The position numbers and the translations under genes were made by a program. This document shows, piece by piece, positions 3,464-56,464 of a stretch of 64,000 bases of DNA (within the stretch, counting starts at the first letter, position 1; each line of letters opens with the position of its first letter). Source of the DNA: Escherichia coli (GTDB taxonomy: Bacteria > Pseudomonadota > Gammaproteobacteria > Enterobacterales > Enterobacteriaceae); NCBI RefSeq assembly GCF_045037415.1, contig NZ_CP173439.1; one strand, 5' to 3'. The notes beneath the pieces are model-generated. The model made no database searches. It had not been told where the DNA came from and was given only the letters and a program-made list of their open reading frames with translations.

Positions 3464-3573
3464 AGGAGTACCTCCGTTCCATGATGTAAACGTGACACAG
3501 TTTATTGTTATTGATTATTATTATCATTATGTTATCACGCACCAGTACACGATGACAATAAAGGAGAAACCAG

Positions 3574-4892: not shown

Positions 4893-6281
4893 ATGTCTTT
4901 GGGGGATAAATTTACATCTGGATACCGTGGGATTAATGCCTTCAATAGTGGCGTGATAAAACTTCTTGTTGCCAGAGAAAATGACTGGATTGAAGAAAAA
5001 CTTAGTGCCATTTTAACTCAATCACCTCGTATTGATTTCGAACCACTCATTGCGAGTATAGTTTTTGGGCGTACTGAGGGGAAAACTTCATTATTTAAAA
5101 ATGTGGAATGTATTGTTCCTGGTTGCAGTTTTAAAATTGACCACACGCACAATGGTGCATCCGTAAGTGAATATATTGACTGGAATGCAATTTCATATAA
5201 GACATTACCGCACGACCCGGCAGAGATTCTTTTTCAGTCTGTATCTGAAGTCGTCAACAGAAATCAAGGCGGATACTTTGTTGTGCGCCTGTCTGGTGGC
5301 ATGGACTCTACTGGCATTCTTCTCTCACTAATGGAGGCAGTTGATGTAAGCAGAATTATTGCCATAACTTATCGGTACCTTATGGGGACAAGCAATCAAG
5401 ATGAAGTATCAGCAAGGTATTTATGTAAAATATTTGGAATCAGGCAAATAATAATTGATTTTGAACCTCATTCATTATTTCATAGGCTTCCTTCACCAGT
5501 GCCTCCTGTTCTAAATATGAGAACAATAAATTTTAAAGTTTATGAAGAGGAAAGAAAGCGTATCGGAAGTATCTGTGGAGATAATTATACCCTGTTTGAT
5601 GGGCATGGGGGGGACCATGTATTTTGTGAGAAAATCCCGTTTGGAATAATAAAAGAGTTATTTTTCCATGGGAGTTTGTTAACCTCATGCCGTAAGTTAT
5701 TACAGATAGCTCGCCTTCATGGCATAAATATGAAAGATGTCTTATTAATGCATACTAATAGTATGCATTATCTTATAACTGAAGCACAGTGTTATTTTTC
5801 CAAAGATGTTATAAAAAACCTTCACTATGACAGAAAAACAGTAAGTGAAGAAAGAAAGTCAGCCCTTCAGGAGGCTATTCTTGATAATGGGACGAGCCTG
5901 ACGCTGAGTCTTACGGAAAACGATATATTCCCTTTTACAGACCAGAGGATGATAGGCTATGGTCTGAAACTCAGAGTTGAGGAGTCATTTGATACTACAT
6001 CAAAACGATTTCAATACAGAAAAGCGATTAATGACAGATATAAATTTGTATTTACCAGAAAAGATAAGGGGCATATAACAGGTGCATATCAGTCGGCCCT
6101 TAGTGTTAATAAGGACCGTGTTATTAATCTTCTGCGCCATGGGCAGTTCGCGACACACGGTTTGTTAAACTTGGAGGGGGTAGAGCGAGCAATAGAAACA
6201 AGTTCTCATGGCATCGGTGGAGTCAGTTTTATTCTTATGAAATTAATTGCTGCAGAACTTATCTTTGAAGGATATTTATAA
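4893..6281 (+). CDS. lasso-peptide cyclase (asparagine synthetase B-like, C protein)
   Basis: ORF 4785..6281 with the likely start at ATG 4893 (AAGGAG SD); PP-loop ATP pyrophosphatase motif VVRLSGGMDSTGIL; size like McjC; stop overlaps the next start (TAATG). Confidence 0.75.
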   Translation: MSLGDKFTSGYRGINAFNSGVIKLLVARENDWIEEKLSAILTQSPRIDFEPLIASIVFGRTEGKTSLFKNVECIVPGCSFKIDHTHNGASVSEYIDWNAISYKTLPHDPAEILFQSVSEVVNRNQGGYFVVRLSGGMDSTGILLSLMEAVDVSRIIAITYRYLMGTSNQDEVSARYLCKIFGIRQIIIDFEPHSLFHRLPSPVPPVLNMRTINFKVYEEERKRIGSICGDNYTLFDGHGGDHVFCEKIPFGIIKELFFHGSLLTSCRKLLQIARLHGINMKDVLLMHTNSMHYLITEAQCYFSKDVIKNLHYDRKTVSEERKSALQEAILDNGTSLTLSLTENDIFPFTDQRMIGYGLKLRVEESFDTTSKRFQYRKAINDRYKFVFTRKDKGHITGAYQSALSVNKDRVINLLRHGQFATHGLLNLEGVERAIETSSHGIGGVSFILMKLIAAELIFEGYL

Positions 6282-36138: not shown

Positions 36139-36377
36139 CGACCCAGGTAGCGCGCCGTATTCCCCCCGCCGGCCGTTTTCTTCGACATGTACATCAGGCG
36201 CGGAACTCATCGGGGCGCGGGAATGAAATCCCATTCAGACTCCGGATAGATTCAAGCAAGCCCACTTATCGTCAAAATCGGTGTTGCAAAAACGGGAGTG
36301 ACCATAGATCCGTTTTCCAAGCGGACCCCATAATATCGGCTGGTAAACATCACTCGCTAGTGCATTCTTTTTGTTGG

Positions 36378-36394
36378 TAATGATAATCATTTAC
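36378..36394 (+). promoter_or_regulatory. Fur box upstream of the ChaN-like/TonB/receptor cluster
   Basis: taATGATAATCATTtac contains a 13-bp perfect match to the Fur-box core AATGATAATCATT. Confidence 0.5.
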
Positions 36395-36470
36395 ATTCAT
36401 TCTTTGATGTTTTATCATAATTAATGTTTTGTCAATAAATATATGGAAACATATTGTTTCAGATGGGAAT

Positions 36471-37346
36471 ATGAGAAAGTTCATCCTTATTTCTATGATA
36501 ACGTTAGCTAGTGTTAGTCTGGGAGCCTGCAGACAGAATGTCACCATAAAGCAGGATGCGCCAGGGCAGAAAGCTTTCCTGACTGACGGGCAGATTTACG
36601 ATTTGCACAGTGGCAAAATTATTTCTAGCAGCGAGCTTTTGGCGGATCTTGCTACCGCTCAACATCTTATTATTGGTGAAAAACACGATAATGCCGAGCA
36701 TCATCAGATTGAGCTTTGGCTTATTCAAAATTTGCTCATCCAGCGACCACAGGGGAGTGTGTTGCTTGAGATGTTGACGTCAGAGCAACAGCCCCGAGTT
36801 AACCAAGTTAAATGTTGGCTGAAAGATAATCCTGTGGTTCGAGATAGCCGTGTTCAGGAACTACTTAACTGGCAAAAAGGGTGGTCCTGGGAGATGTATG
36901 GCGACATCGTCATGCAGCTATTACGTGGGCCTTACCCGCTGCTCAATGCCAACATTGGCCGGGAGCAGATATTGGCACTGTACAAAAAAAACGAATTTCC
37001 TAAAGGAAAAAAATCCACTGCACCTGTGGTACAAGAAGCTCTGCGTGAAACCATCATATCTATGCATGAAGGCAACCTTGAAAGCCAGCAACTGACGTCA
37101 ATGCTCTCTATTCAGCAGCAGCGGGATCGCTACATGGCCCGCCAGCTTCTGAGTGCCCCGGTACCGTCGTTGTTGATTGCAGGTGGTTATCACGCGTCAA
37201 AAAGCATGGGCGTACCGTTACACATGGAAGATCTTGCCACCGGCACCCATCCAGTGGTGTTGATGCTTGCAGAAAAAGGAATGAACATCACAGTAGATCA
37301 TGCTGACTACGTGTGGTTTGTAGCGCCAGATACAACAAAAAGGTAA
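36471..37346 (+). CDS. ChaN-like lipoprotein (Tiki/haem-binding-uptake family)
   Basis: Lipoprotein signal with lipobox LGAC; motif GEKHDNAEHH typical of the ChaN family as recalled; start taken at the internal Met of ORF 36429..37346. Confidence 0.55.
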   Translation: MRKFILISMITLASVSLGACRQNVTIKQDAPGQKAFLTDGQIYDLHSGKIISSSELLADLATAQHLIIGEKHDNAEHHQIELWLIQNLLIQRPQGSVLLEMLTSEQQPRVNQVKCWLKDNPVVRDSRVQELLNWQKGWSWEMYGDIVMQLLRGPYPLLNANIGREQILALYKKNEFPKGKKSTAPVVQEALRETIISMHEGNLESQQLTSMLSIQQQRDRYMARQLLSAPVPSLLIAGGYHASKSMGVPLHMEDLATGTHPVVLMLAEKGMNITVDHADYVWFVAPDTTKR

Positions 37347-46427: not shown

Positions 46428-46913
46428 TTACTCCGAGATAAAAACCTCATACTTAATATTGCGGGCGCAATAAAAAGTGCCGTCCGTCAGATACAGTTCA
46501 CGAAATCGCGTGTTATCAGAGATGTTGTCCAGCAGGGAACGTTCCGTATCGACAAATTCTTTTTGCACGCGGTAATGAACGGCGTTCTCCGTTTCAAAAG
46601 AGACATATTCCGTGGTGGCGTAGGGCTTATTTTTTGATTTCACGTACACGATATATTGCACGGTACTGGCCGTCAGCCCCGTTTTCGCCGCGATCTCTTT
46701 GAGACTCAACGTCTCAGAGGCATAAAGCGCCTGAACCTGCGCTATGCGTCGGTGATTATACGCCGTCACCCGAAGGCTCAGTTTCAGCCGATAGGCCATA
46801 TTCCGCACGGCGGTAATATTAGTGTGAAGCAGTTGCGCTATCTGCTCTGTCGTGAGGATGCCCGCGTTTTCCCGCAGAATCGCAAGGCTTTCGTCGTTCC
46901 AGATAAATGCCAT
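46428..46913 (-). CDS. hypothetical protein (possible HTH-containing)
   Basis: 161-aa ORF immediately downstream of the thioredoxin-like gene; no recognisable motif. Confidence 0.4.
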   Translation of the reverse strand: MAFIWNDESLAILRENAGILTTEQIAQLLHTNITAVRNMAYRLKLSLRVTAYNHRRIAQVQALYASETLSLKEIAAKTGLTASTVQYIVYVKSKNKPYATTEYVSFETENAVHYRVQKEFVDTERSLLDNISDNTRFRELYLTDGTFYCARNIKYEVFISE

Positions 46914-46937: not shown

Positions 46938-47423
46938 TCATCGCGCCGCCAGGCGCGCAAACGTGGCCTCTAACTCAGGCGGCTTACGCATACCCTGGTG
47001 TAGCTCCAGAACGCGTCCTTCGGAGTCAATCAGTACGGAGGTCGGCGTGCCGATCACCTGATAACGTTCCTGGGTAATGTTGAGCTGATCGCGCACCACC
47101 GGATAGGTTATCTGATGTTTTGCCAGCAGATCGTTGATCCTGACCGTTTCAGGGTCGGTATTGACCGCCACAACCACCACTTTATCGCCCCATTTTTTGC
47201 TCAGCGCTTCCAGCGTGTCCATTTCCGCCAGGCACCCCCCGCATCCCGCAGACCAAAAATTCAGGTACACCGCCTTTCCTTGCCAGCGTTCAAGGCCTGA
47301 CTCCTGGCCTTGCAGATCAAACGCCGCCAGCGCCGGGGCCGGTGCCCCGACCGCCAGCTTTTCTTCTTTACACCCGCTTATCAGGATCGCCGCCGCGAGT
47401 AACAGCACATTATGCCAGCGCAT
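46938..47423 (-). CDS. thioredoxin-like thiol:disulfide oxidoreductase (TlpA/ResA-like)
   Basis: Signal/anchor then WSAGCGGC CxxC motif; last gene of the fetMP-associated ABC operon. Confidence 0.7.
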   Translation of the reverse strand: MRWHNVLLLAAAILISGCKEEKLAVGAPAPALAAFDLQGQESGLERWQGKAVYLNFWSAGCGGCLAEMDTLEALSKKWGDKVVVVAVNTDPETVRINDLLAKHQITYPVVRDQLNITQERYQVIGTPTSVLIDSEGRVLELHQGMRKPPELEATFARLAAR

Positions 47424-48105
47424 GTTGATTGGCCTCCTCACCCAGATATTTACCGTGTTGCAGCCGCAGAATACGGTCGGCAAACTGCCCAAGCGCAGGG
47501 TTGTGCGTCACCATCACAATCGTGCGCCCCTGACGATGCAGATCGGTGAGCAGATCCAGCACCCGCTGCTCATTCTCTTCATCCAGGTTGCCCGTCGGTT
47601 CATCCGCGAAAATAACCGGCGGTTCGTTGACCAGCGCCCGGGCGATACACACACGCTGCTGCTCACCACCGGAAAGCTGGCTCGGCAGGTGCGTCACACG
47701 ATGCCCAAGCCCTACCTGTTCCAGCACCTTCCTCGCCGCCGCTTCATCCACCACGCTGTGGTAATGCTGGGCGAGCATGATGTTTTCCAGCGCAGTTAAG
47801 AACGGGATCAAATGGAACTGCTGAAATACCAGGCCGATTTTCTCGGCGCGAAAGCGACGGCGCCCCTCTTCATCCAGCGCGGCGGCATCGGTGCCATCAA
47901 GAAACACCTGCCCTTCCGTCGCCGTATCAAGGCACGTCAGAATATTCATCAGCGTGGTTTTACCAGAACCAGAAGCGCCCATAATGGCGACAAATTCACC
48001 CTGCGCAATGCGCAGATTAATGTCATCCAGGGCGGTAACGTCACCGAACCGTTTGTATAAGTGGCGGGTTTCGATCGCCACCTGAGGGATATGCGTAACG
48101 GACAT
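47410..48105 (-). CDS. ABC transporter ATP-binding protein (LolD/MacB-type)
   Basis: Walker [10 protein letters not shown], signature LSGGEQQR, Walker [12 protein letters not shown]. Confidence 0.85.
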
Positions 48106-48109
48106 GGCG

Positions 48110-49240
48110 CTACTCTCCTTTCAGCACTTTAGCAGGCTCGACGCTTACCGCGCGTCGCACCGGAACAATCGCCGCCAGAATGGCGACCAGTAAAGACAAC
48201 ACCAGAGTAATGGGCAACACCGGCAGACGCAGTGAAATGGCGGCATTAAACACCGTTAATCCCAACAGTTGCGCCAGCAAATATCCCAGCACCCAGCCGC
48301 ACGCCACCGCCGCCAGCGCGATGATGCTGGTTTCCAGCAGAATTTGCCGCACGATATCGCCGTTGCTGGAACCAAGCGCTTTTTGCAGCGCAAACTCGTG
48401 CGCCCGCTCGCCGACAATCGCCATCAGCGTGGTATTCACGCACAGCGAAGAGAGCGCCAGAATCACGATCGAGACCAGTCCCATCAGACCTTTAATTTTA
48501 TCCAGCACCTGCCCTTCGGAAGCAGAGACCTTACGCACCGGACGAATCTCCTGGTCAGGATACTGCGCCTGCAACCGGCTGGCATAGTTCTCCACCTGGC
48601 CGACATCGTTACTGACGCTCAGCAAGCCGTGGCTGATTTTGCCCGGCTGATGCAGCCAGGCCTGCGCCACGTCGAGGCTGACGATCAGCATGTTGTCCGT
48701 CGCATCGCCAGACTCCACAATGCCTTTAATCTGCAAATTCTTACGCTGATTGTGATCCACCAGCGTGATGCTGTCGCCCGGCTGCACGTTGAGGCGTTCC
48801 GCCAGTTTGACGCCGATCATCGCATTACGGTCGTCAAAACTGACGCCAATCCAGCTACCGGTGACCTGCCAGTACGGCACCAGTTTTTGCAGCGACTCGA
48901 ACCACACGCCAACCATCACCACTTTTTCCAGCTCGGTACGCGCCATGCCGTACAACCACGGACTGGCGCCATGCACCAGCCCCTGCGGCGCCTGATCGAG
49001 AATGCTCTGCAACTCCTGCTGCGGCATACTGGAACCGTGCCCCGGCCCGATGTAAAAATTCGCGCCGAAGGTGCGCAGTTCTTCGCTCATTTTGGTGTTA
49101 ATGTCGAACCAGACGGCAGAAAGCGCCGTCACGATGGTCGCCCCCACCATCAGCGCGGCAAACACCACGCTGACCCGCTGAAAACGCAGACGCAGCGCCC
49201 GCCACACCAGCAGCCAGAGCATGGTACGTTTAGCGGCCAT
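48110..49240 (-). CDS. ABC transporter permease, FtsX-like
   Basis: N-terminal TM, large periplasmic domain, C-terminal multi-TM bundle; start estimated at an internal Met. Confidence 0.7.
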   Translation of the reverse strand: MAAKRTMLWLLVWRALRLRFQRVSVVFAALMVGATIVTALSAVWFDINTKMSEELRTFGANFYIGPGHGSSMPQQELQSILDQAPQGLVHGASPWLYGMARTELEKVVMVGVWFESLQKLVPYWQVTGSWIGVSFDDRNAMIGVKLAERLNVQPGDSITLVDHNQRKNLQIKGIVESGDATDNMLIVSLDVAQAWLHQPGKISHGLLSVSNDVGQVENYASRLQAQYPDQEIRPVRKVSASEGQVLDKIKGLMGLVSIVILALSSLCVNTTLMAIVGERAHEFALQKALGSSNGDIVRQILLETSIIALAAVACGWVLGYLLAQLLGLTVFNAAISLRLPVLPITLVLSLLVAILAAIVPVRRAVSVEPAKVLKGE

Positions 49241-50513
49241 ACAGCACCTCCACAGGATACAGCCGGGCAATCCGCCGGGCCGGGAACCAGGTGCCGATCA
49301 ACGCAATCAGTACCGCAATCACCAGTACGCACGGCACCACAATCCAGGCAAAATTAAGCGGCGCGTCGAAGAGCATGACGCCAATCGCTTTCGCCAGCCC
49401 CCACCCGGCAATACATCCCAGCGCACCGCCAGCCAGCCCGCTGGACGCCGCTTCCAGGTAGAACAGCAGCATAATTTGCCACTGTCGCGCACCCAGCGCT
49501 TTCATCAAACCGATCTCTTTGGCGCGTTCCATAATGGTGCTGGTCATCAGCGAGGCGATCCCCATTGCGGAAGCCACCAGCGCCGCGACGGTAACGACCG
49601 CCATCAGCAACTGAATTTTATCGATCACCACCCCTTCGGACGCCGCGACCTGCCATACCGGGCGCACTTCCGCACCGGAAATCGCCTCTTCCAGCTGATG
49701 CGCGATCGACGACACATAGGCCGTGCAATACCAGAGGTCGTACTCTTCGGCATTGAGCGCGTCCAGGTTTTCCCGCGCGCGGCGGGACAGTTCGTTTTCC
49801 GGCACCGTCAGCGCCGAGACGCGAATCGCCTGCACTTTTCCGGGGAGCCCCAGCAGGTGCTGTACCGTGCTTAGCGGCATCACCAGTTGGTTATCTTCAT
49901 CGCCGCCGCTGGAGAGGATACCGCTGACGGTGACCTGCACTGCTTCGCCTTCGGTACGTAATGTCAGCTTATCACCGGGTTTCCAGCCCATTTGCCGCGC
50001 CAGCGCGTGCCCGACTAAGGTCTGCGGCTCTGCGCCTGCGGGTTCCTGCGGCCAGTCGCCGGTCACCTGCCAGTATGGGCTGACCGTTTTCTGCCCCGTC
50101 TCATATCCCTCTTCATCAGGAATATCCACTGGCTGACTGAAGAAAGTGCCCAGAATCCGCACTGGTTCTCCCTCCACGCTGGCTTCGCCGCCGAGCATCG
50201 GCGCAAACCCGACAATGTTGTTTCGCCAGAAGATATCTTTGATGTTCGGCAGCTCGGCTTCATCAAGAAAATCCTGACCGGAAAGCGGATTACTGCTCTC
50301 ACTAAACAGCGCGGGCAGCGCAGCCTGTCCGGCGGGTTCAATCAAAATGTTCGCACCATAAGACTTCAGCTCTCTGGACATTTTGTCGCCGATATCAATG
50401 GACACCGCCAGCAGCGCCGAGATCAGGCTGGAGGCCAGAAAAACGGTGATTATCGCCAGCACTTTGCGGCGTAAATTGCGCCCCCAGGATTGTCGTAACA
50501 TCCGCCACAGCAT
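49230..50513 (-). CDS. ABC transporter permease, FtsX-like
   Basis: 427 aa, same architecture as its neighbour. Confidence 0.75.
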   Translation of the reverse strand: MLWRMLRQSWGRNLRRKVLAIITVFLASSLISALLAVSIDIGDKMSRELKSYGANILIEPAGQAALPALFSESSNPLSGQDFLDEAELPNIKDIFWRNNIVGFAPMLGGEASVEGEPVRILGTFFSQPVDIPDEEGYETGQKTVSPYWQVTGDWPQEPAGAEPQTLVGHALARQMGWKPGDKLTLRTEGEAVQVTVSGILSSGGDEDNQLVMPLSTVQHLLGLPGKVQAIRVSALTVPENELSRRARENLDALNAEEYDLWYCTAYVSSIAHQLEEAISGAEVRPVWQVAASEGVVIDKIQLLMAVVTVAALVASAMGIASLMTSTIMERAKEIGLMKALGARQWQIMLLFYLEAASSGLAGGALGCIAGWGLAKAIGVMLFDAPLNFAWIVVPCVLVIAVLIALIGTWFPARRIARLYPVEVLYGR

Positions 50514-50515
50514 GA

Positions 50516-51895
50516 TTATTCCTCCCTCATGTCGGCAGGAACAAACTGCTCCGGCGTTTCACGGAAGCGTTCATAGTTAGCCTCTGACGAGAAGAACCAG
50601 GTCTTGCCGCCATAGCTGTATTTGTAATCGGCTGAGGTATTGGTCAACGTTGAACCATCGACCGGATCGGTCACTTTAATAGTCATGACCGTCGAGAAGT
50701 AGTTCACCCCTGTCGCCAGTTCTTTACCGGGGATCACCAGCTCTTTTTCATCATTGTGCCAGTTTTCAATCGGCACCGGGTTACAGCCACCGGCCTTGCC
50801 GATAGACGGAATAAAAATATGCACTCCGCAGGCGACGCAGATAACCTGATTGCCCTCCATGACATAACCCTGATCGCCGCACAGCAGGCAGGCGTCGAAC
50901 ACCACGCCAAAACGCAGCTTGTCGGGATAGCGGTTAATCACGAAGAAGCGCACCGCTTTGCCATCGTCCGCCACCCAGACGAAACGATGCAGTTTACCGT
51001 CACGAAGCTGTTCAACCGGCAGGCGCACCATGCCATCGCTCCCCAGCGTTACGGGCACGGCTTCAGAGAGTTGCGGCGGCTGCGAGGCCACTTTATCCCA
51101 CCACAGTTGGCCTGCGATAACGACCACCGCGCAGCCGATTGTGACCAACCACAGCCGCAAAGCGTTGCGACGCTGCGCCAGCGCCAGACGGTGAGCAATC
51201 GGTTCTTCGGTTTCCCGCGTCTGTCGAAAAGCCCGCAACAGCGCCGGAAGCCAGCACAGCGCCAGGGCCAGCAGCAGCGCGGCTCCCGTCCAGTTATACA
51301 GCGCCGTGTTATTTGTGACTTTCGCCACGAAGCTCAGCAGTGATTTTCCCAGCGGAACAACCTGTAATTTCATCAGCAACAACAGCAGGTTGCCGCTCAG
51401 CGGCAGCCAGATCATCACCAGCAGAATCAGCGTTAACGGCCAGTACAGGCCGCGAATACGCCGCAGCAGCATCGCGCAGAGTACGCCCGCCAGACAGAGG
51501 ATCGCAAAAGCGAGAACGACGGCCGTCAGGTTTAACAGCAGGTCAGTATTCAGCACATGCGTACTGGTCAGCCCGCCCAGATTAGGGTCCAGCGCCCAAT
51601 GGCGGGCAGCGCCGAAAATCAGAATCCCCTGCCACAGATAGCGGATACGCGTTGAAGCCCACCAGAAACTGAGGACAAACAGCAGCGATACCATGACCTC
51701 CGCCCCAACCAGCAGCAGTTGTACCGGTTGGCTGCCGTGAATAAACAGTCCCGCCAGCACGCCGGCAATCAGCCCGGTCAGCAGCGTCCAGGTCAGCGGA
51801 CGTAAAGAGGGAGGATCGTTTCGACTCCAGAGAACACCGGAAAGAAGCGCAATGCAGAAAAAGACCTGTAGCGTCGTGACGAAAAAGTAACTCAT
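50516..51895 (-). CDS. integral membrane protein with C-terminal Cys-rich/YHS-like domain (Cj1660-like)
   Basis: 459 aa; multiple TM helices; C-terminal CLLCGD...CVACG and KYSYGGKTWFFSSEANYERF. Confidence 0.55.
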   Translation of the reverse strand: MSYFFVTTLQVFFCIALLSGVLWSRNDPPSLRPLTWTLLTGLIAGVLAGLFIHGSQPVQLLLVGAEVMVSLLFVLSFWWASTRIRYLWQGILIFGAARHWALDPNLGGLTSTHVLNTDLLLNLTAVVLAFAILCLAGVLCAMLLRRIRGLYWPLTLILLVMIWLPLSGNLLLLLMKLQVVPLGKSLLSFVAKVTNNTALYNWTGAALLLALALCWLPALLRAFRQTRETEEPIAHRLALAQRRNALRLWLVTIGCAVVVIAGQLWWDKVASQPPQLSEAVPVTLGSDGMVRLPVEQLRDGKLHRFVWVADDGKAVRFFVINRYPDKLRFGVVFDACLLCGDQGYVMEGNQVICVACGVHIFIPSIGKAGGCNPVPIENWHNDEKELVIPGKELATGVNYFSTVMTIKVTDPVDGSTLTNTSADYKYSYGGKTWFFSSEANYERFRETPEQFVPADMREE

Positions 51896-51998
51896 AACTT
51901 CGACTCTGTACGGCGGGTTGAATTAAGCGACGGGCATATGATCGGTCTGACCAACGCGCCAGAAGGGGGAATCCTCCTGGCGCGTTGGTTAGTCGGTT

Positions 51999-52529
51999 TT
52001 AGTTCAGACCGACATATTTAAACTCGTAGCTCACATCAAACGGTTTCCACCAGCGGCCTACGCCTGTTTCGCTGTCAGTATGGCGATGCATCCCGGCTTT
52101 TGACGGCGGTTCAATGTGGTAGGTCACTTTATAGTTGCCCACGCCCATCATTTTGATGTTCGCGCCATAGTGCGGGCCATCGCTGGCAACCATCGGCATG
52201 AAGGTGCCTTCCTGTTTTTCGCCCGTGTCGTTGTTGACCAGGGTGTAGCTGATGGTCAGGTACGGGATCCATTCCCCTGCGCCAAAGCCGTTTTTATTGC
52301 CTTCTACAGCGTGGATATCCGCTTCAAGGTGAACATCGGCTTTTGCTGCCGGTAAGCCCATGCCGCGCGGTTCCATATCAATCGGTTGCAGGTAAACGGC
52401 CGCCAGCTCCATTTCATTCATGGTGACAGGCTCGCCTGCCGGGTACTCTTTAAAAGCAAACGCGGCTGGCGCAATGAAAATGCTGGCCATCACTGCGCTG
52501 GCAATCAGGGTTTTCTTCATGGTCATCAA
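51999..52529 (-). CDS. fetP: periplasmic iron transport protein FetP/P19 family
   Basis: 176 aa with signal peptide; size and position immediately after the FTR1-type permease match FetP/P19. Confidence 0.7.
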   Translation of the reverse strand: MMTMKKTLIASAVMASIFIAPAAFAFKEYPAGEPVTMNEMELAAVYLQPIDMEPRGMGLPAAKADVHLEADIHAVEGNKNGFGAGEWIPYLTISYTLVNNDTGEKQEGTFMPMVASDGPHYGANIKMMGVGNYKVTYHIEPPSKAGMHRHTDSETGVGRWWKPFDVSYEFKYVGLN

Positions 52530-52566
52530 ACGTATCCTCTCGTCTAAAACAACGGCTATACAACGA

Positions 52567-54513
52567 TTATGGGTTATTTTTTATCGTCTCCCCGGGAACC
52601 GCGCTTTTGCGCCGCATCACCCACAGCGCCACCAGCGCCGCGAGCAGCAATACGACCTGCGGTAACAACGTTTCCACGTAGGGATAAATCCCCAGCCAGC
52701 TGATTTCAGGGAAGCCGTTAATCAACGTAGGCTGGAACAGTTTGCCTTCCACCAGTTCCAGAACGCCTTTGCCCGCAAAGACGAAGGCCATCAGATACAT
52801 GAAACTGCCGGTAAACATAAAGAAGGGTTTCAGCGGCAGGCGCACTACTGAGTAACGCATCACCAGCCAGGCGAGCAGCAGCACCACGCAGCCAATCACA
52901 AAACCGGCGCCAATCGCCATATGGCCGGATACCGTGTTTGCATCGCCAATCAGAGCGTAATAGAACAGCACCGTTTCCGCCCCTTCGCGGTACACCGCCA
53001 GGAAGCTGGTCAGCCATAGTCCGACCAGGGAGCCTCGCGACAGGGAATGAGACAGTTTGCCTTCCAGCCAGGCTTTCCAGTGGCGCGCTTCCACTTTGGA
53101 CAGCAGCCAGTAACTCATAAAGAACAGCATCACGACGGCAATCAGCATCGTTATGCCTTCCAGCAGTTCACGGCTGGCGCCGGAGTTAGTAAACAGCATC
53201 TGGAAGATAGCGGCGGTGATGACGCTGGCGATCAGCGCCACAATTACCGACTGACGAATAAGCGGCAGCTTATCCTGATGGTTGTTTTTCACCATGTAGG
53301 CCACGATTGCCGCAACAATCAGCAGCGCTTCCAGCCCCTCGCGCACGATGATCATCAGACTATAGAGCAGCAGACTCCACTGGGTTTCTTCGCCTTCGCC
53401 CAGCATCGTCACGGCTTTTTGCAGATCCTGCGCCAGCGCGCTGGCCTCTGCATTCAGGCGCTCAACCGGCTGACCGGCCTTCATCAGACTGACCAAGCGG
53501 GTAAAATACGCCTCCAGCGTGGTTTTAAATGCCGAATCGCGAGAGCCGATTTTGTTTTCCATGCCGCTGGCTTCGAAGCGGTCGAAGTAGGTATCCTGGA
53601 TATCCAGAATCGCATTCTTCGCATCGCCGCCCTGATAGCGCGCTATCGCGTCCTGAATGCTCTGGTTAATTCCCGTCGTCACCTCAGCCCAGTCGGTGCG
53701 GTTATTTCCCTCGTCCGCCGCCGGAATGTTGTCTGCGCTTTGCGCTGCGGCAACCTGCTGATCGTCACGGGTGGTTGGCAAGCCGGGTAAGATATCCTCG
53801 ATATCCTGTAGCAGCGTAGTGACCTGATAGGAGACATCGTTGAGATGGTCAGGTTGCGCGGTCAGCGCAATCAGGGATGAGAATTGTTGGTTAATGGAGG
53901 CGGCATCTTTTGCAGAACGGTTTTGTCTGAGGGACATCTCCATCTCAGAGTTTTTAAAGCCCTGATAGTGCGCCTGTTGAACGTGCTGACTGGCAACGCT
54001 GTAATTCCCGGCCTGATATTCAGTGACCGCCTGCGCCAGCAGATCGTCGATCGTCCTGAAACTCTCCTGCCAGTGAACGGCAATGTCGTCCCTGGACAGC
54101 GCGTTGTGCTGCTCTTCGGCCACCAGACGATGTCCGCCATCCAGCACCGGTTCCACTTCGCGCAGTGCGGCTTTCAGCCAGTCAATGCGCGCCTGGACGT
54201 CAGCGAGCGGTTTTTTCTCGCCAATCATTCGACGGATCTCGCCGAATGCGCTCTCCATCTCGTAACTTTTGCGCGCGGAAATGTTGATGCGGATCGGCCC
54301 TTCCAGGTTCTCGAACACCTCAAAATAGGCCATTTGTACCGTGCGGCGCGCCTCGTCGGCATGCTGTTGCTGATAAAGTTCCGCTGTTTTATCAAGACGT
54401 TGCTCGATATCTTCAATCAAAGGCGCATAATTCGTCGACGCCCAGACACTCATGCTTATAAACAAGCCAAAGAGAGTAACCAACAAAGAGTTACGAAAGT
54501 TACGCACGTGCAC
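52567..54513 (-). CDS. fetM: FTR1-family iron permease with large N-terminal periplasmic domain (FetM-like)
   Basis: 648 aa; REGLEALLIVAAI (RExxE motif) in the C-terminal membrane domain; Fur box immediately upstream. Confidence 0.8.
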   Translation of the reverse strand: MHVRNFRNSLLVTLFGLFISMSVWASTNYAPLIEDIEQRLDKTAELYQQQHADEARRTVQMAYFEVFENLEGPIRINISARKSYEMESAFGEIRRMIGEKKPLADVQARIDWLKAALREVEPVLDGGHRLVAEEQHNALSRDDIAVHWQESFRTIDDLLAQAVTEYQAGNYSVASQHVQQAHYQGFKNSEMEMSLRQNRSAKDAASINQQFSSLIALTAQPDHLNDVSYQVTTLLQDIEDILPGLPTTRDDQQVAAAQSADNIPAADEGNNRTDWAEVTTGINQSIQDAIARYQGGDAKNAILDIQDTYFDRFEASGMENKIGSRDSAFKTTLEAYFTRLVSLMKAGQPVERLNAEASALAQDLQKAVTMLGEGEETQWSLLLYSLMIIVREGLEALLIVAAIVAYMVKNNHQDKLPLIRQSVIVALIASVITAAIFQMLFTNSGASRELLEGITMLIAVVMLFFMSYWLLSKVEARHWKAWLEGKLSHSLSRGSLVGLWLTSFLAVYREGAETVLFYYALIGDANTVSGHMAIGAGFVIGCVVLLLAWLVMRYSVVRLPLKPFFMFTGSFMYLMAFVFAGKGVLELVEGKLFQPTLINGFPEISWLGIYPYVETLLPQVVLLLAALVALWVMRRKSAVPGETIKNNP

Positions 54514-54528
54514 ACCGCCAAAGAATAC

Positions 54529-54547
54529 AAATGATAATTATTATCAT
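54529..54547 (-). promoter_or_regulatory. Fur box upstream of fetM
   Basis: AATGATAATTATTATCAT, one mismatch from the Fur core; lies 15-35 bp upstream of the annotated GTG start, so the true start or promoter geometry needs checking. Confidence 0.5.
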
Positions 54548-54799
54548 ATCTTTTTGTCGCGTTGTACATGACCTGGATCATAAAAATGTCAGCAGACGAC
54601 AAGTTATGTAAACTTATTTCATCAAATCGTGATGAACACACACATTATGCGTTGATAAAAGGGACGTTATCTCCCTGTTTTTCTCATGGAATTAACGGCA
54701 AGGCAGGCGCGGTAACAGAGGAATAAATCCCCCTGCCGACAGTGATATTATTCATTATCGGCAGGCAGAAATAAAACGCGTTATTGCGTACAGCAATAT

Positions 54800-55561
54800 T
54801 CAAAGATTAAGGTTATTTCGATCGCTGGCAAGACGCTGTAAGAATTGACCATATCCCTGCGGCCCCATCCAGTAGTTAATACTTTTCTCAACGCCGGTTG
54901 ATGTCAACGTCGCACCGGAAATACCGTCAACGGTATATTCATCGGCATGTTCAGGTTTATCCTGTACTATTTTCAATGCAGGATGTCCGCTGTTATCTAA
55001 TAATCGTTTCCCTGGCCACTGTTTGCGCCAGTTGGCGTCTTCCACCCTAGCCCCCAGAAACGGCGTTTCCCGTTGCTGATAATAATACAGATTTCTCACC
55101 GTACGACCGTCCAGCCCCAGAGCAAGAAACGCATGCATCATGGATTTCGCGCCCTTACCGGTAACTGGAATGATAACCTGCTGAATTTCATTATTTTTAT
55201 CTTTCACAAAGAACACATCCGCCACCGTACAGCGCTGACGAACCTGCGCTGGGTCGCGTTCAGGGGCAAGTTTTTCACACTTCTGCCGCGCGGTGTCCGC
55301 GCTGCTGCCAGCCACCAGTTCGCCGGAATCTAAATTAACATGGCGTTGAATAATATAACGATGATAGAGCGTTTCGACTGATTTTTTATCCTGGGTCTCT
55401 GATTTCATCAGGCCCGCAGCGTGTAAAATTGCCGCCTGTTTTTCCTCCTCTGTCGGCTCCGTCATTTCTCCCTGGAACAGCATAAACCATGCCGCCGCCG
55501 CAACAAAAATAAGGACACAAAGCACCATCATTGATGCAACAATAATTTTACCCTTGCGCAT
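54800..55561 (-). CDS. FMN-binding domain membrane protein (NqrC/RnfG-like)
   Basis: Membrane anchor then a domain with the conserved GISGATLTS motif; start estimated at an internal Met. Confidence 0.55.
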   Translation of the reverse strand: MRKGKIIVASMMVLCVLIFVAAAAWFMLFQGEMTEPTEEEKQAAILHAAGLMKSETQDKKSVETLYHRYIIQRHVNLDSGELVAGSSADTARQKCEKLAPERDPAQVRQRCTVADVFFVKDKNNEIQQVIIPVTGKGAKSMMHAFLALGLDGRTVRNLYYYQQRETPFLGARVEDANWRKQWPGKRLLDNSGHPALKIVQDKPEHADEYTVDGISGATLTSTGVEKSINYWMGPQGYGQFLQRLASDRNNLNL

Positions 55562-55797: not shown

Positions 55798-56304
55798 TCA
55801 AAACATGGCTGCCCGCCACAGACGTAACTTCATGCCCCAGTAGCTGGTCCAGCCGCTGGTCGTAGTTACCACCTGCCCCTTCGACACCACCACCAGCGTT
55901 GGCGTGACGCTGATTTCCCAGTTTCGTGATATCTCACCGCCGCTATCATTCACGACGGGGAACGTCACCCTTTTACGCGATAACCAGCGGGAAACCTCCC
56001 CGTCATTACCGGAACGCAGCGCGATGGTCATGACGCTCTCCCCTTCCGACTGCAAACGGGCGACATCCGGCGTGGTGAAACGGCAGATACCGCACCAGCT
56101 CGCCCAGAAGTAGAGCAGCACCGGGCGTTCTTCACTGATCGACGCCAGCGTTACGGTTTCCCCGTCCAGCGTATGCAGCGGCGTGCTGTCAAACATGGCC
56201 GGCATCTGCGGAGAACGCCAGACATCCAGCAGGATTATCACGCCAGCCAGCAGAACCAGTAAGATCGCGCCTTCACGCAGCCAGCGGCGCAGTTTACTGA
56301 GCAT
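55798..56304 (-). CDS. scsD: thiol:disulfide interchange protein ScsD-like (TlpA family)
   Basis: 168 aa; membrane anchor and WASWCGICR CxxC motif; sits directly after an ScsC-like fragment. Confidence 0.65.
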   Translation of the reverse strand: MLSKLRRWLREGAILLVLLAGVIILLDVWRSPQMPAMFDSTPLHTLDGETVTLASISEERPVLLYFWASWCGICRFTTPDVARLQSEGESVMTIALRSGNDGEVSRWLSRKRVTFPVVNDSGGEISRNWEISVTPTLVVVSKGQVVTTTSGWTSYWGMKLRLWRAAMF

Positions 56305-56464
56305 GGGCCACCGCCAGTTTTTCTTTCACCACCGCCTCAAGGGTCTCCCACGATACCGCGCCGGGGATCATCTCGTCGCCAATGATGGTTGCCGGCGTCC
56401 CCTGAACGCCAACCAGCCGGGCGAGTTGCAGATTGGTGCTCAACGTCTCCATGCTTTTCTCATC
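56294..56464 (-). pseudogene. scsC: DsbA-like ScsC, C-terminal fragment only
   Basis: ...GVQGTPATIIGDEMIPGAVSWETLEAVVKEKL is a DsbA-family C-terminus; the 5' part is replaced at the 38-bp repeat at 56465. Confidence 0.5.

Follow-up and report, generated by a model that had tools for sequence, protein, structure and literature searches.

We conclude with high confidence that positions 46938-54513 of a 64,000-nucleotide stretch of Escherichia coli DNA (contig NZ_CP173439.1, assembly GCF_045037415.1; referred to here as the window) hold a plasmid-borne FetMP-Fls iron uptake operon, which is predicted to be repressed by Fur at the -10 region of its promoter and whose first gene, fetM, starts at the GTG codon at position 54507. 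The locus is the archetypal E. coli FetMP, and thus a system that has already been described, because the mature FetP protein encoded here is 100% identical to PDB entries 3NRP and 3NRQ, the FetP of uropathogenic E. coli F11.

Results

Seven consecutive open reading frames (ORFs) on the minus strand, separated by short gaps or overlapping, make up the operon in the order fetM, fetP, flsD, flsA, flsB, flsC, flsT. The product of fetM (52567..54507) is an iron permease of the FTR1/ILT family with 646 amino acids (aa) (profile search, Pfam FTR1, E=7.5e-43), comprising a signal peptide at residues 1-23, a predicted periplasmic domain of about 360 aa and seven transmembrane (TM) helices. Its REGLE motif at residue 389 and its REGAE motif at residue 507 are both invariant in the 16 diverse homologues compared. 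Directly downstream, after a gap of 40 nucleotides (nt), follows fetP (51999..52526), which encodes a periplasmic copper/iron-binding protein of the P19 family (PF10634, E=7e-70). FlsD (50516..51895), the equivalent of Campylobacter jejuni FetA and collinear in related loci, consists of a polytopic membrane region followed by an FtrD-like Cys-rich (DUF2318) and a YHS domain, as detected by profile search. Family matches assign FlsA (49230..50513), which carries a periplasmic MacB_PCD domain, and FlsB (48110..49240; 376 aa from its ATG) to the ATP-binding cassette (ABC) permeases of the MacB/LolCE/FtsX type, FlsC (47410..48105) to the ABC ATPases of the LolD/MacB/FtsE type and FlsT (46938..47423) to the TlpA/ResA-like thiol-disulfide oxidoreductases. 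The translation of the latter thioredoxin-like protein contains a lipobox (LISGC) and a CGGC active-site motif.

An earlier note on this DNA, made from the letters alone, had read these genes as an FTR1 permease with an RExxE motif, a P19/FetP-like periplasmic protein, a Cys-rich membrane protein, two FtsX-like permeases, an ABC ATPase and a thioredoxin-like protein in the seven-gene cFtr1-P19 arrangement, and the family, motif and structure matches given above bear this reading out for every gene. The arrangement itself equals that of the published FetMP-Fls cluster. Including the genes further downstream, the order is exactly that of the Salmonella plasmid pUO-StVR2 (fetM, fetP, flsD, flsA, flsB, flsC, flsT, flsE, flsF), and when 80 related loci from Enterobacterales, Pasteurellaceae, Vibrio, Verrucomicrobia and other groups were fetched, about 70 had the seven genes in this order; in most of the remaining ones the locus or contig ends inside the cluster. 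The seven-gene arrangement is far beyond chance.

In a search for the 7-1-7 Fur motif, TGATAATnATTATCA is perfectly matched at 54532-54546, upstream of fetM. This perfect Fur box, TGATAATAATTATCA (54532..54546, no strand assigned), lies 19 nt from the GTG that opens the longest ORF (54513) and 24 nt from the conserved GTG at 54507, in agreement with the statement of the earlier note that a Fur box sits within about 35 bp of the start. Fur boxes resemble -10 regions, and one may therefore ask whether the sequence is a chance AT-rich match within the promoter and not an operator. We regard this as having a negligible probability. Matches with up to two mismatches number five in the 64-kb window, compared to 0.31 expected, and the expectation for a perfect 15-nt 7-1-7 match lies far below 0.31 per 64 kb. 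Moreover, the phylogenetic footprint of the box is as strong as that of coding sequence, while its flanks diverge. In the closest relatives of seven genera the box is kept with 0-2 mismatches, 20-24 nt from the start codon; it is conserved in Citrobacter, Superficieibacter, Klebsiella, Raoultella, Sodalis and Atlantibacter. Published work points in the same direction, as the F11 FetMP is reported to be a Fur-regulated uptake system for Fe2+ and Fe3+, as cited in PMC7285068, and a putative Fur box was drawn upstream of the pUO-StVR2 cluster by Garcia et al. 2020 (PMC7285068).

The full 19-mer of Citrobacter, GATAATGATAATAATTATC, shows one mismatch to the Fur consensus, compared to 4-5 mismatches for the corresponding 19-mer of the window. 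In the plasmid lineage, 4 bp are missing from the 5' hexamer of the 19-bp Fur box (region 54546-54550), with the palindromic core being kept. Because of this deletion, a search with the 19-mer Fur consensus allowing up to three mismatches did not pick up the fetM box. A stop codon in the frame of fetM lies inside the Fur box, which is thus non-coding.

The promoter scan yielded a candidate -10 hexamer GATAAT (54540..54545, minus strand; TGTACA-17-GATAAT) and an alternative one, TATCAT (54531-54536, minus strand; GCGACA-18-TATCAT), both of which overlap the Fur box. Measured from these predicted hexamers, the leader has an ordinary length of 17-26 nt. The earlier note had considered the box too close to the start for normal promoter geometry; this objection falls away, given the overlap with -10-like hexamers, the leader length and the conserved spacing. 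A Fur operator placed over the -10 region, followed by a short leader, is the classical arrangement for repression and provides no argument for another start. In C. jejuni, the Fur box is separated from the fetM start by only 10 nt (PMC6083913/PMC10783030). As a separate candidate for the main -35 element we considered a TTGACA upstream of the palindrome described below; it is conserved, but was rejected as no -10 element is found at 16-18 nt.

An alignment of the promoter and 5' regions of 12 orthologous loci from seven genera supports GTG 54507 as the probable start of fetM, two codons inside the longest ORF and giving a 646-aa precursor. The codon at this position is GTG in 8 of the 12 loci and ATG in the other four (Klebsiella, Raoultella). 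Upstream of it the indels measure 1, 2 and 4 nt, and downstream only multiples of three occur. In the window a GGCGG is located 6 nt upstream of GTG 54507. The resulting first 23 residues, MRNFRNSLLVTLFGLFISMSVWA, follow the textbook pattern of a signal peptide, with a basic n-region, a hydrophobic core and a cleavage site between VWA and ST. Among 17 further homologues with 35-55% identity, 15 have the same pattern immediately ahead of a conserved (N/D)Y motif. In line with this, the hydropathy profile of FetM consists of a hydrophobic segment at residues 7-25, an acidic domain of 358 aa and the membrane core, and the positive-inside pattern fits an N-out topology. An N-terminus outside the cytoplasm is the accepted topology of FTR1 permeases.

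Two observations weigh against this start. The Shine-Dalgarno (SD)-like sequence is weak in the other genera of the alignment, and the RefSeq FetM produced by the Prokaryotic Genome Annotation Pipeline (PGAP), WP_001332815.1, has 628 aa, begins at ATG 54453 and is found on at least 1000 contigs. Translation from this internal ATG (MSVWAS...), with the GTG-proximal 54 nt serving as leader or promoter, is what the earlier note had favoured in naming the internal Met of FISMSVWAS as the true start. ATG is the preferred type of start codon, this one is used by PGAP and in many NCBI records, and it would leave a leader of 71-80 nt after the Fur box. We nevertheless consider this start highly improbable, and the proposal of the earlier note has to be given up. 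The internal Met is not conserved, being replaced by V, L, A, C or T in Citrobacter, Phytobacter, Superficieibacter, Klebsiella and Raoultella, and the bases upstream of ATG 54453 (tttataagcATG) contain no SD-like sequence. The 18 codons preceding it keep their frame and signal-peptide character across the 12 loci and in distant homologues. A start at MSVWAS would remove this conserved signal peptide and leave a 360-aa domain, periplasmic according to the N-out seven-TM core, without an export signal. Citrobacter orthologues of FetM are annotated with a longer N-terminus (645-649 aa).

A start at the first in-frame GTG (54513), which gives the longest ORF of 648 aa, is improbable as well, albeit to a slightly lesser degree. 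It is the first start codon of the ORF, and in C. freundii an ATG precedes the conserved GTG by 1-3 codons. However, the GGCGG ends only 1 nt before GTG 54513, most of the aligned loci lack a start codon in the 54513 column, and the indels just before 54507 have lengths that are not divisible by three. GTG 54507 is hence retained as the start. Regarding the case that the earlier note had set out against its own proposal, namely an N-terminus conserved from the GTG together with a coding Fur-like sequence, the alignment shows the conserved N-terminus, but the Fur-like sequence is non-coding.

Upstream of the Fur box we found a palindrome of the FNR/CRP type, aTGATCCAGGTCAt (54568..54581, minus strand), a candidate second operator or activator site with 7 of 10 matches to TTGAT-N4-ATCAA. 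It belongs to a second conserved part of the promoter, in which the block TTTTTATGATCCAGGTCATGTACAA, about 33 nt upstream of the Fur box, is near-invariant in Citrobacter, Superficieibacter and Klebsiella, with diverging flanks. The palindrome is conserved across Enterobacterales and Pasteurellaceae, with constant arms (TGAY/RTCA) and a variable central N4. Taking the transcription start site (TSS) predicted from GATAAT, its centre would be positioned 41.5 nt upstream, i.e. at the class II position. As an observation on the plasmid lineage, the 4-bp deletion in the Fur box also shortens the distance from the FNR-like site to the -10 region compared to Citrobacter. CRP was rejected as the cognate regulator, since the Yersinia sites fit FNR at 10 of 10 positions and CRP only at about 7 of 10 (manual comparison).

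Whether the promoter combines Fur with FNR, as that of feoABC does, or is regulated by Fur only, with the palindrome being a -35/UP-type element or serving a different regulator, is nearly balanced, and we give the Fur-only reading a little less than an even chance. In its favour, the site of the window reaches only 7 of 10 matches, with changes in the outer T and A that discriminate FNR sites, and the plasmid departs from the other aligned loci by 2-4 nt in the spacing between palindrome and Fur box. In addition, no link between FNR and fetMP was found in the literature searched, a scope outside of which two primary papers (Koch 2011, Fetherston 2012) fall. Against it, 51 of the 80 related loci contain TGAY-N4-RTCA, with conserved arms and a free centre, at 60-130 nt upstream of fetM, compared to about 0.6 loci expected from a background of 0.007 per 70 nt. 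Five Yersinia loci possess a perfect TTGAT-N4-ATCAA and 17 further loci, including Haemophilus, Budvicia and Brenneria, reach 9 of 10 matches; the predicted -41.5 position of the window site likewise speaks for FNR. A joint Fur and FNR arrangement has a precedent, because feoABC of E. coli and Shigella combines Fur repression with activation by FNR/ArcA (review PMC3852070).

Two conserved neighbours of the operon lay outside the account of the earlier note, an NqrC-like gene directly upstream of fetM and flsE directly downstream of flsT. The former (54800..55561, minus strand) encodes a membrane-anchored protein derived from NqrC that binds flavin mononucleotide (FMN); it shares the strand of fetM, has its own promoter region and is followed by its own terminator-like hairpin. 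PGAP names the product NqrC. Its similarity to V. cholerae NqrC extends over the full length including the membrane anchor (E=2e-50), it passes the NCBIfam NqrC cut-off, and its FMN-acceptor motif DGISGAT is invariant both in its clade and in true NqrC. PGAP places the start at GTG 55615. The start is probably ATG 55561 instead (253 aa), because the homologues have 246-253 aa and begin with MRKGK or MRKSK.

The gene is a conserved neighbour of fetM in Enterobacteriaceae, being located immediately upstream of it in 13 of 13 related loci with a FetM at least 78% identical (Citrobacter, Superficieibacter, Raoultella, Klebsiella and Sodalis), in varied genomic surroundings. Three further members of the clade (46-58% identity) also adjoin FTR1-P19-FtrD-like genes. 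Neither in the window nor in 16 related loci is the gene flanked by nqr genes. True NqrC forms a separate clade with at most 43% identity; the next clade is represented by a Yokenella homologue (43% identity), which is a genuine NqrC within nqrABCDEF-nqrM, whereas the FetMP-linked form adjoins fetMP-fls and not nqrABCDEF. We know of no Nqr complex in E. coli. To judge from clade and neighbourhood, what gene pipelines call NqrC is a FetMP-linked orphan paralogue. Upstream of the gene, 10 loci show neither a Fur nor an FNR box and only a weakly conserved TTGCAA...TGGCAT block; co-regulation with fetMP is thus not supported. In Candidatus Sodalis endolongispinus the NqrC-like gene (about 5137-5667 of its locus) contains in-frame stops, and the fetMP-fls genes look intact.

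Just after the fetP stop codon lies a GC-rich hairpin of 16 bp without a U-run (51951..51988, minus strand), with a minimum free energy of -47.6 kcal/mol (z=-5.4). Nearly every related locus has a hairpin in this position, with a sequence unrelated to the others; in the one Yersinia locus whose sequence was looked at (L018), a T-run comes after it. A regulatory element in the fetP-flsD gap had been suspected by Richardson-Sanchez et al. 2023 (PMC10783030). The hairpin probably acts as a partial terminator or a 3'-stabiliser, so that the expression of fetMP and that of the fls genes are uncoupled.

On the downstream side, flsE (46428..46913, minus strand; 161 aa) begins 24 nt after flsT, occurs only in Citrobacter-type clusters and has been named in PMC7285068. 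A search against NCBIfam gave no meaningful match for FlsE, and in Pfam many weak, sub-threshold helix-turn-helix matches fall on residues 20-44 and 62-89; FlsE may be a small DNA-binding protein.

The 8-kb segment is present in 845 plasmid records at 99-100% identity, all but one of them at 99% or more, and five Salmonella plasmids are among the carriers. Among 5426 complete E. coli genomes, 839 (about 15%) carry it, nearly always on plasmids. On the C. freundii chromosome the order is DsbD, DsbA-like, thioredoxin (168 aa), FMN_bind, fetM, fetP, flsD, flsA, flsB, flsC, flsT, a hypothetical protein (162 aa) and, further on, a histidine phosphatase. Between the insertion sequence (IS) elements of the window we find a DsbA fragment, a 168-aa thioredoxin, the FMN_bind gene, the operon, flsE and a truncated phosphatase. 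The GC content is 55-59% at 46-54 kb, compared to values mostly in the 40s or low 50s elsewhere in the window. Identity to Citrobacter amounts to 88-97% for FetM, FetP and FlsD/A/B/C, about 82-85% for FlsT, about 78% for FlsE and 70-77% for the upstream neighbours. Gene order, composition and identities indicate that a Citrobacter-like chromosome was the source of the IS-flanked segment; none of the genomes sampled is its exact donor.

The membrane-anchored 168-aa thioredoxin (WCGIC) and the DsbA fragment (55798-56464, minus strand) are the remnant of a DsbD-DsbA-thioredoxin operon that was cut by IS elements. In Citrobacter this operon, which we take to be Scs-like, lies next to the cluster; in other genera it does not belong to the Fet system.

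Fur-like sequences were also observed at two other places of the window. Two overlapping matches at 36375-36395 precede a plus-strand ORF (36429-37346) by about 35-55 nt, and the genes there encode a ChaN-family lipoprotein, a TonB-like protein and a TonB-dependent receptor (cjrABC-like), with senB further on. Judging by this gene content, the plasmid probably carries here a second iron locus under Fur control. Further Fur-like boxes at 3507-3531 (19-mer with three mismatches; 7-1-7 motif with one mismatch at 3512-3526) are found in a divergent intergenic region between small ORFs, with genes for a colicin-like pore-former and for immunity annotated around them.

Discussion

The closest described relatives of the operon are the F11 and pUO-StVR2 systems. 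Compared to F11 FetMP (Koch et al. 2011, J Biol Chem 286:25317), which has the same FTR1-type FetM with an N-terminal periplasmic domain besides the identical mature FetP, no difference is detectable, and the two are the same locus. The FetMP-Fls cluster of pUO-StVR2 from Salmonella Typhimurium shares the nine-gene layout, the IS26 flanks and the putative upstream Fur box, the window differing in that its flsF (histidine phosphatase) is truncated. With fetMP-flsDA deleted from pUO-StVR2, the iron content of the cells fell five-fold, and growth, invasion and replication within macrophages were impaired (PMC7285068). That account discusses neither the fetM start nor an FNR-like site, and the NqrC-like gene figures in it only in the legend of Figure 1, as an unnamed 'additional gene'.

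FetMP-Fls is the orthologue of C. jejuni fetMP-fetABCDEF (cFtr1-P19, Cj1658-1665), in which the first seven genes have the same order and domains, with protein identities of 27-57% to the Fls cluster (PMC7285068). The C. jejuni operon is Fur regulated, with every gene needed under iron limitation (PMC6083913, PMC10783030), and shares the Fur box near the fetM start (10 nt) and the intergenic gap after fetP. It differs in having two thioredoxins, FetE and FetF, and no NqrC-like gene.

More distant systems, namely FtrABCD of Bordetella and Brucella and EfeUOB of E. coli, also pair an FTR1-family permease containing REXXE motifs with a periplasmic metal-binding partner. FtrA is a P19 homologue (PDB matches 8VV5, 7R4Z) and an FtrD-like domain is present in FlsD; FtrABCD, however, employs the cupredoxin FtrB and the polyferredoxin FtrD and has neither an ABC transporter nor a thioredoxin, and EfeUOB employs EfeO and the peroxidase EfeB. 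The additional periplasmic domain of about 360 aa in FetM is absent from the permeases of both systems, with EfeU models covering only FetM residues 385-593.

Based on promoter geometry, conservation and literature, the location of the -10 region inside the Fur operator would allow Fe(II)-Fur to block transcription when iron is replete, possibly with an additional input by FNR. The hairpin between fetP and flsD would probably render the fetMP mRNA more abundant than the fls part. The acidic N-terminal domain of FetM, of about 360 aa, would be exported in a Sec-dependent manner by means of the 23-residue signal peptide, ahead of the seven-helix FTR1 core with its two REGxE motifs. In studies of identical or orthologous proteins, FetP is described as a periplasmic copper/iron protein that is needed at low Fe(II) and for Fe(III) and FetM as an iron transporter, and the downstream genes are required. 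According to this work, FetP binds iron that it passes on to FetM, probably while redox-cycling Fe(III)/Fe(II), and the iron is moved into the cytoplasm by FetM. This step may be supported by FlsD, by a heteromeric FlsABC ATPase complex of the MacB/LolCDE type and by the lipoprotein thioredoxin FlsT, which most likely supply or relay redox equivalents or perform mechanical work in the periplasm. From its family matches, FlsABC would represent a mechanotransmitting complex of the LolCDE/MacB type rather than a classical importer. A finding from C. jejuni weighs against this reading, as FetE was found to be more oxidase-like than reductase-like (PMC10783030). The literature searched contained no mechanistic FetMP papers after 2023.

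With respect to electron supply, it is plausible by analogy that the NqrC-like protein acts as a periplasmic electron carrier. Gram-positive Fet clusters encode an FMN-binding protein where Proteobacteria have a thioredoxin (Liu et al. 2018, PMC6083913), and Méheust et al. list P19-associated flavinylated proteins, mostly from Gram-positives. In the window cluster both a thioredoxin and an FMN-binding protein are present. Combining promoter and neighbouring gene, we tentatively put forward a more far-reaching idea, which we consider possible but rather unlikely as a whole: the promoter would be an oxygen/iron switch, activated through an ancestral FNR site and repressed by Fur at the -10 region, and the NqrC paralogue, recruited in Enterobacteriaceae including this plasmid, would serve as an ApbE-flavinylated periplasmic electron carrier. 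If true, the system would be made mainly under low oxygen and low iron, like feoABC, and the NqrC paralogue would serve the Fe(III)/Fe(II) or a thiol redox step, in parallel to Gram-positive Fet clusters, in which FMN-binding proteins take the place of the thioredoxin.

In conclusion, the operon represents a known fitness and virulence module that moves together with resistance genes on epidemic F-type plasmids. The dominant 628-aa RefSeq version of FetM probably lacks its signal peptide, which matters for expression constructs, localisation predictions and structure modelling. The conserved FNR-type element, which is undescribed in the literature searched, suggests when the system is used, and the NqrC-like paralogue provides a concrete candidate for the missing electron path of the uptake mechanism.

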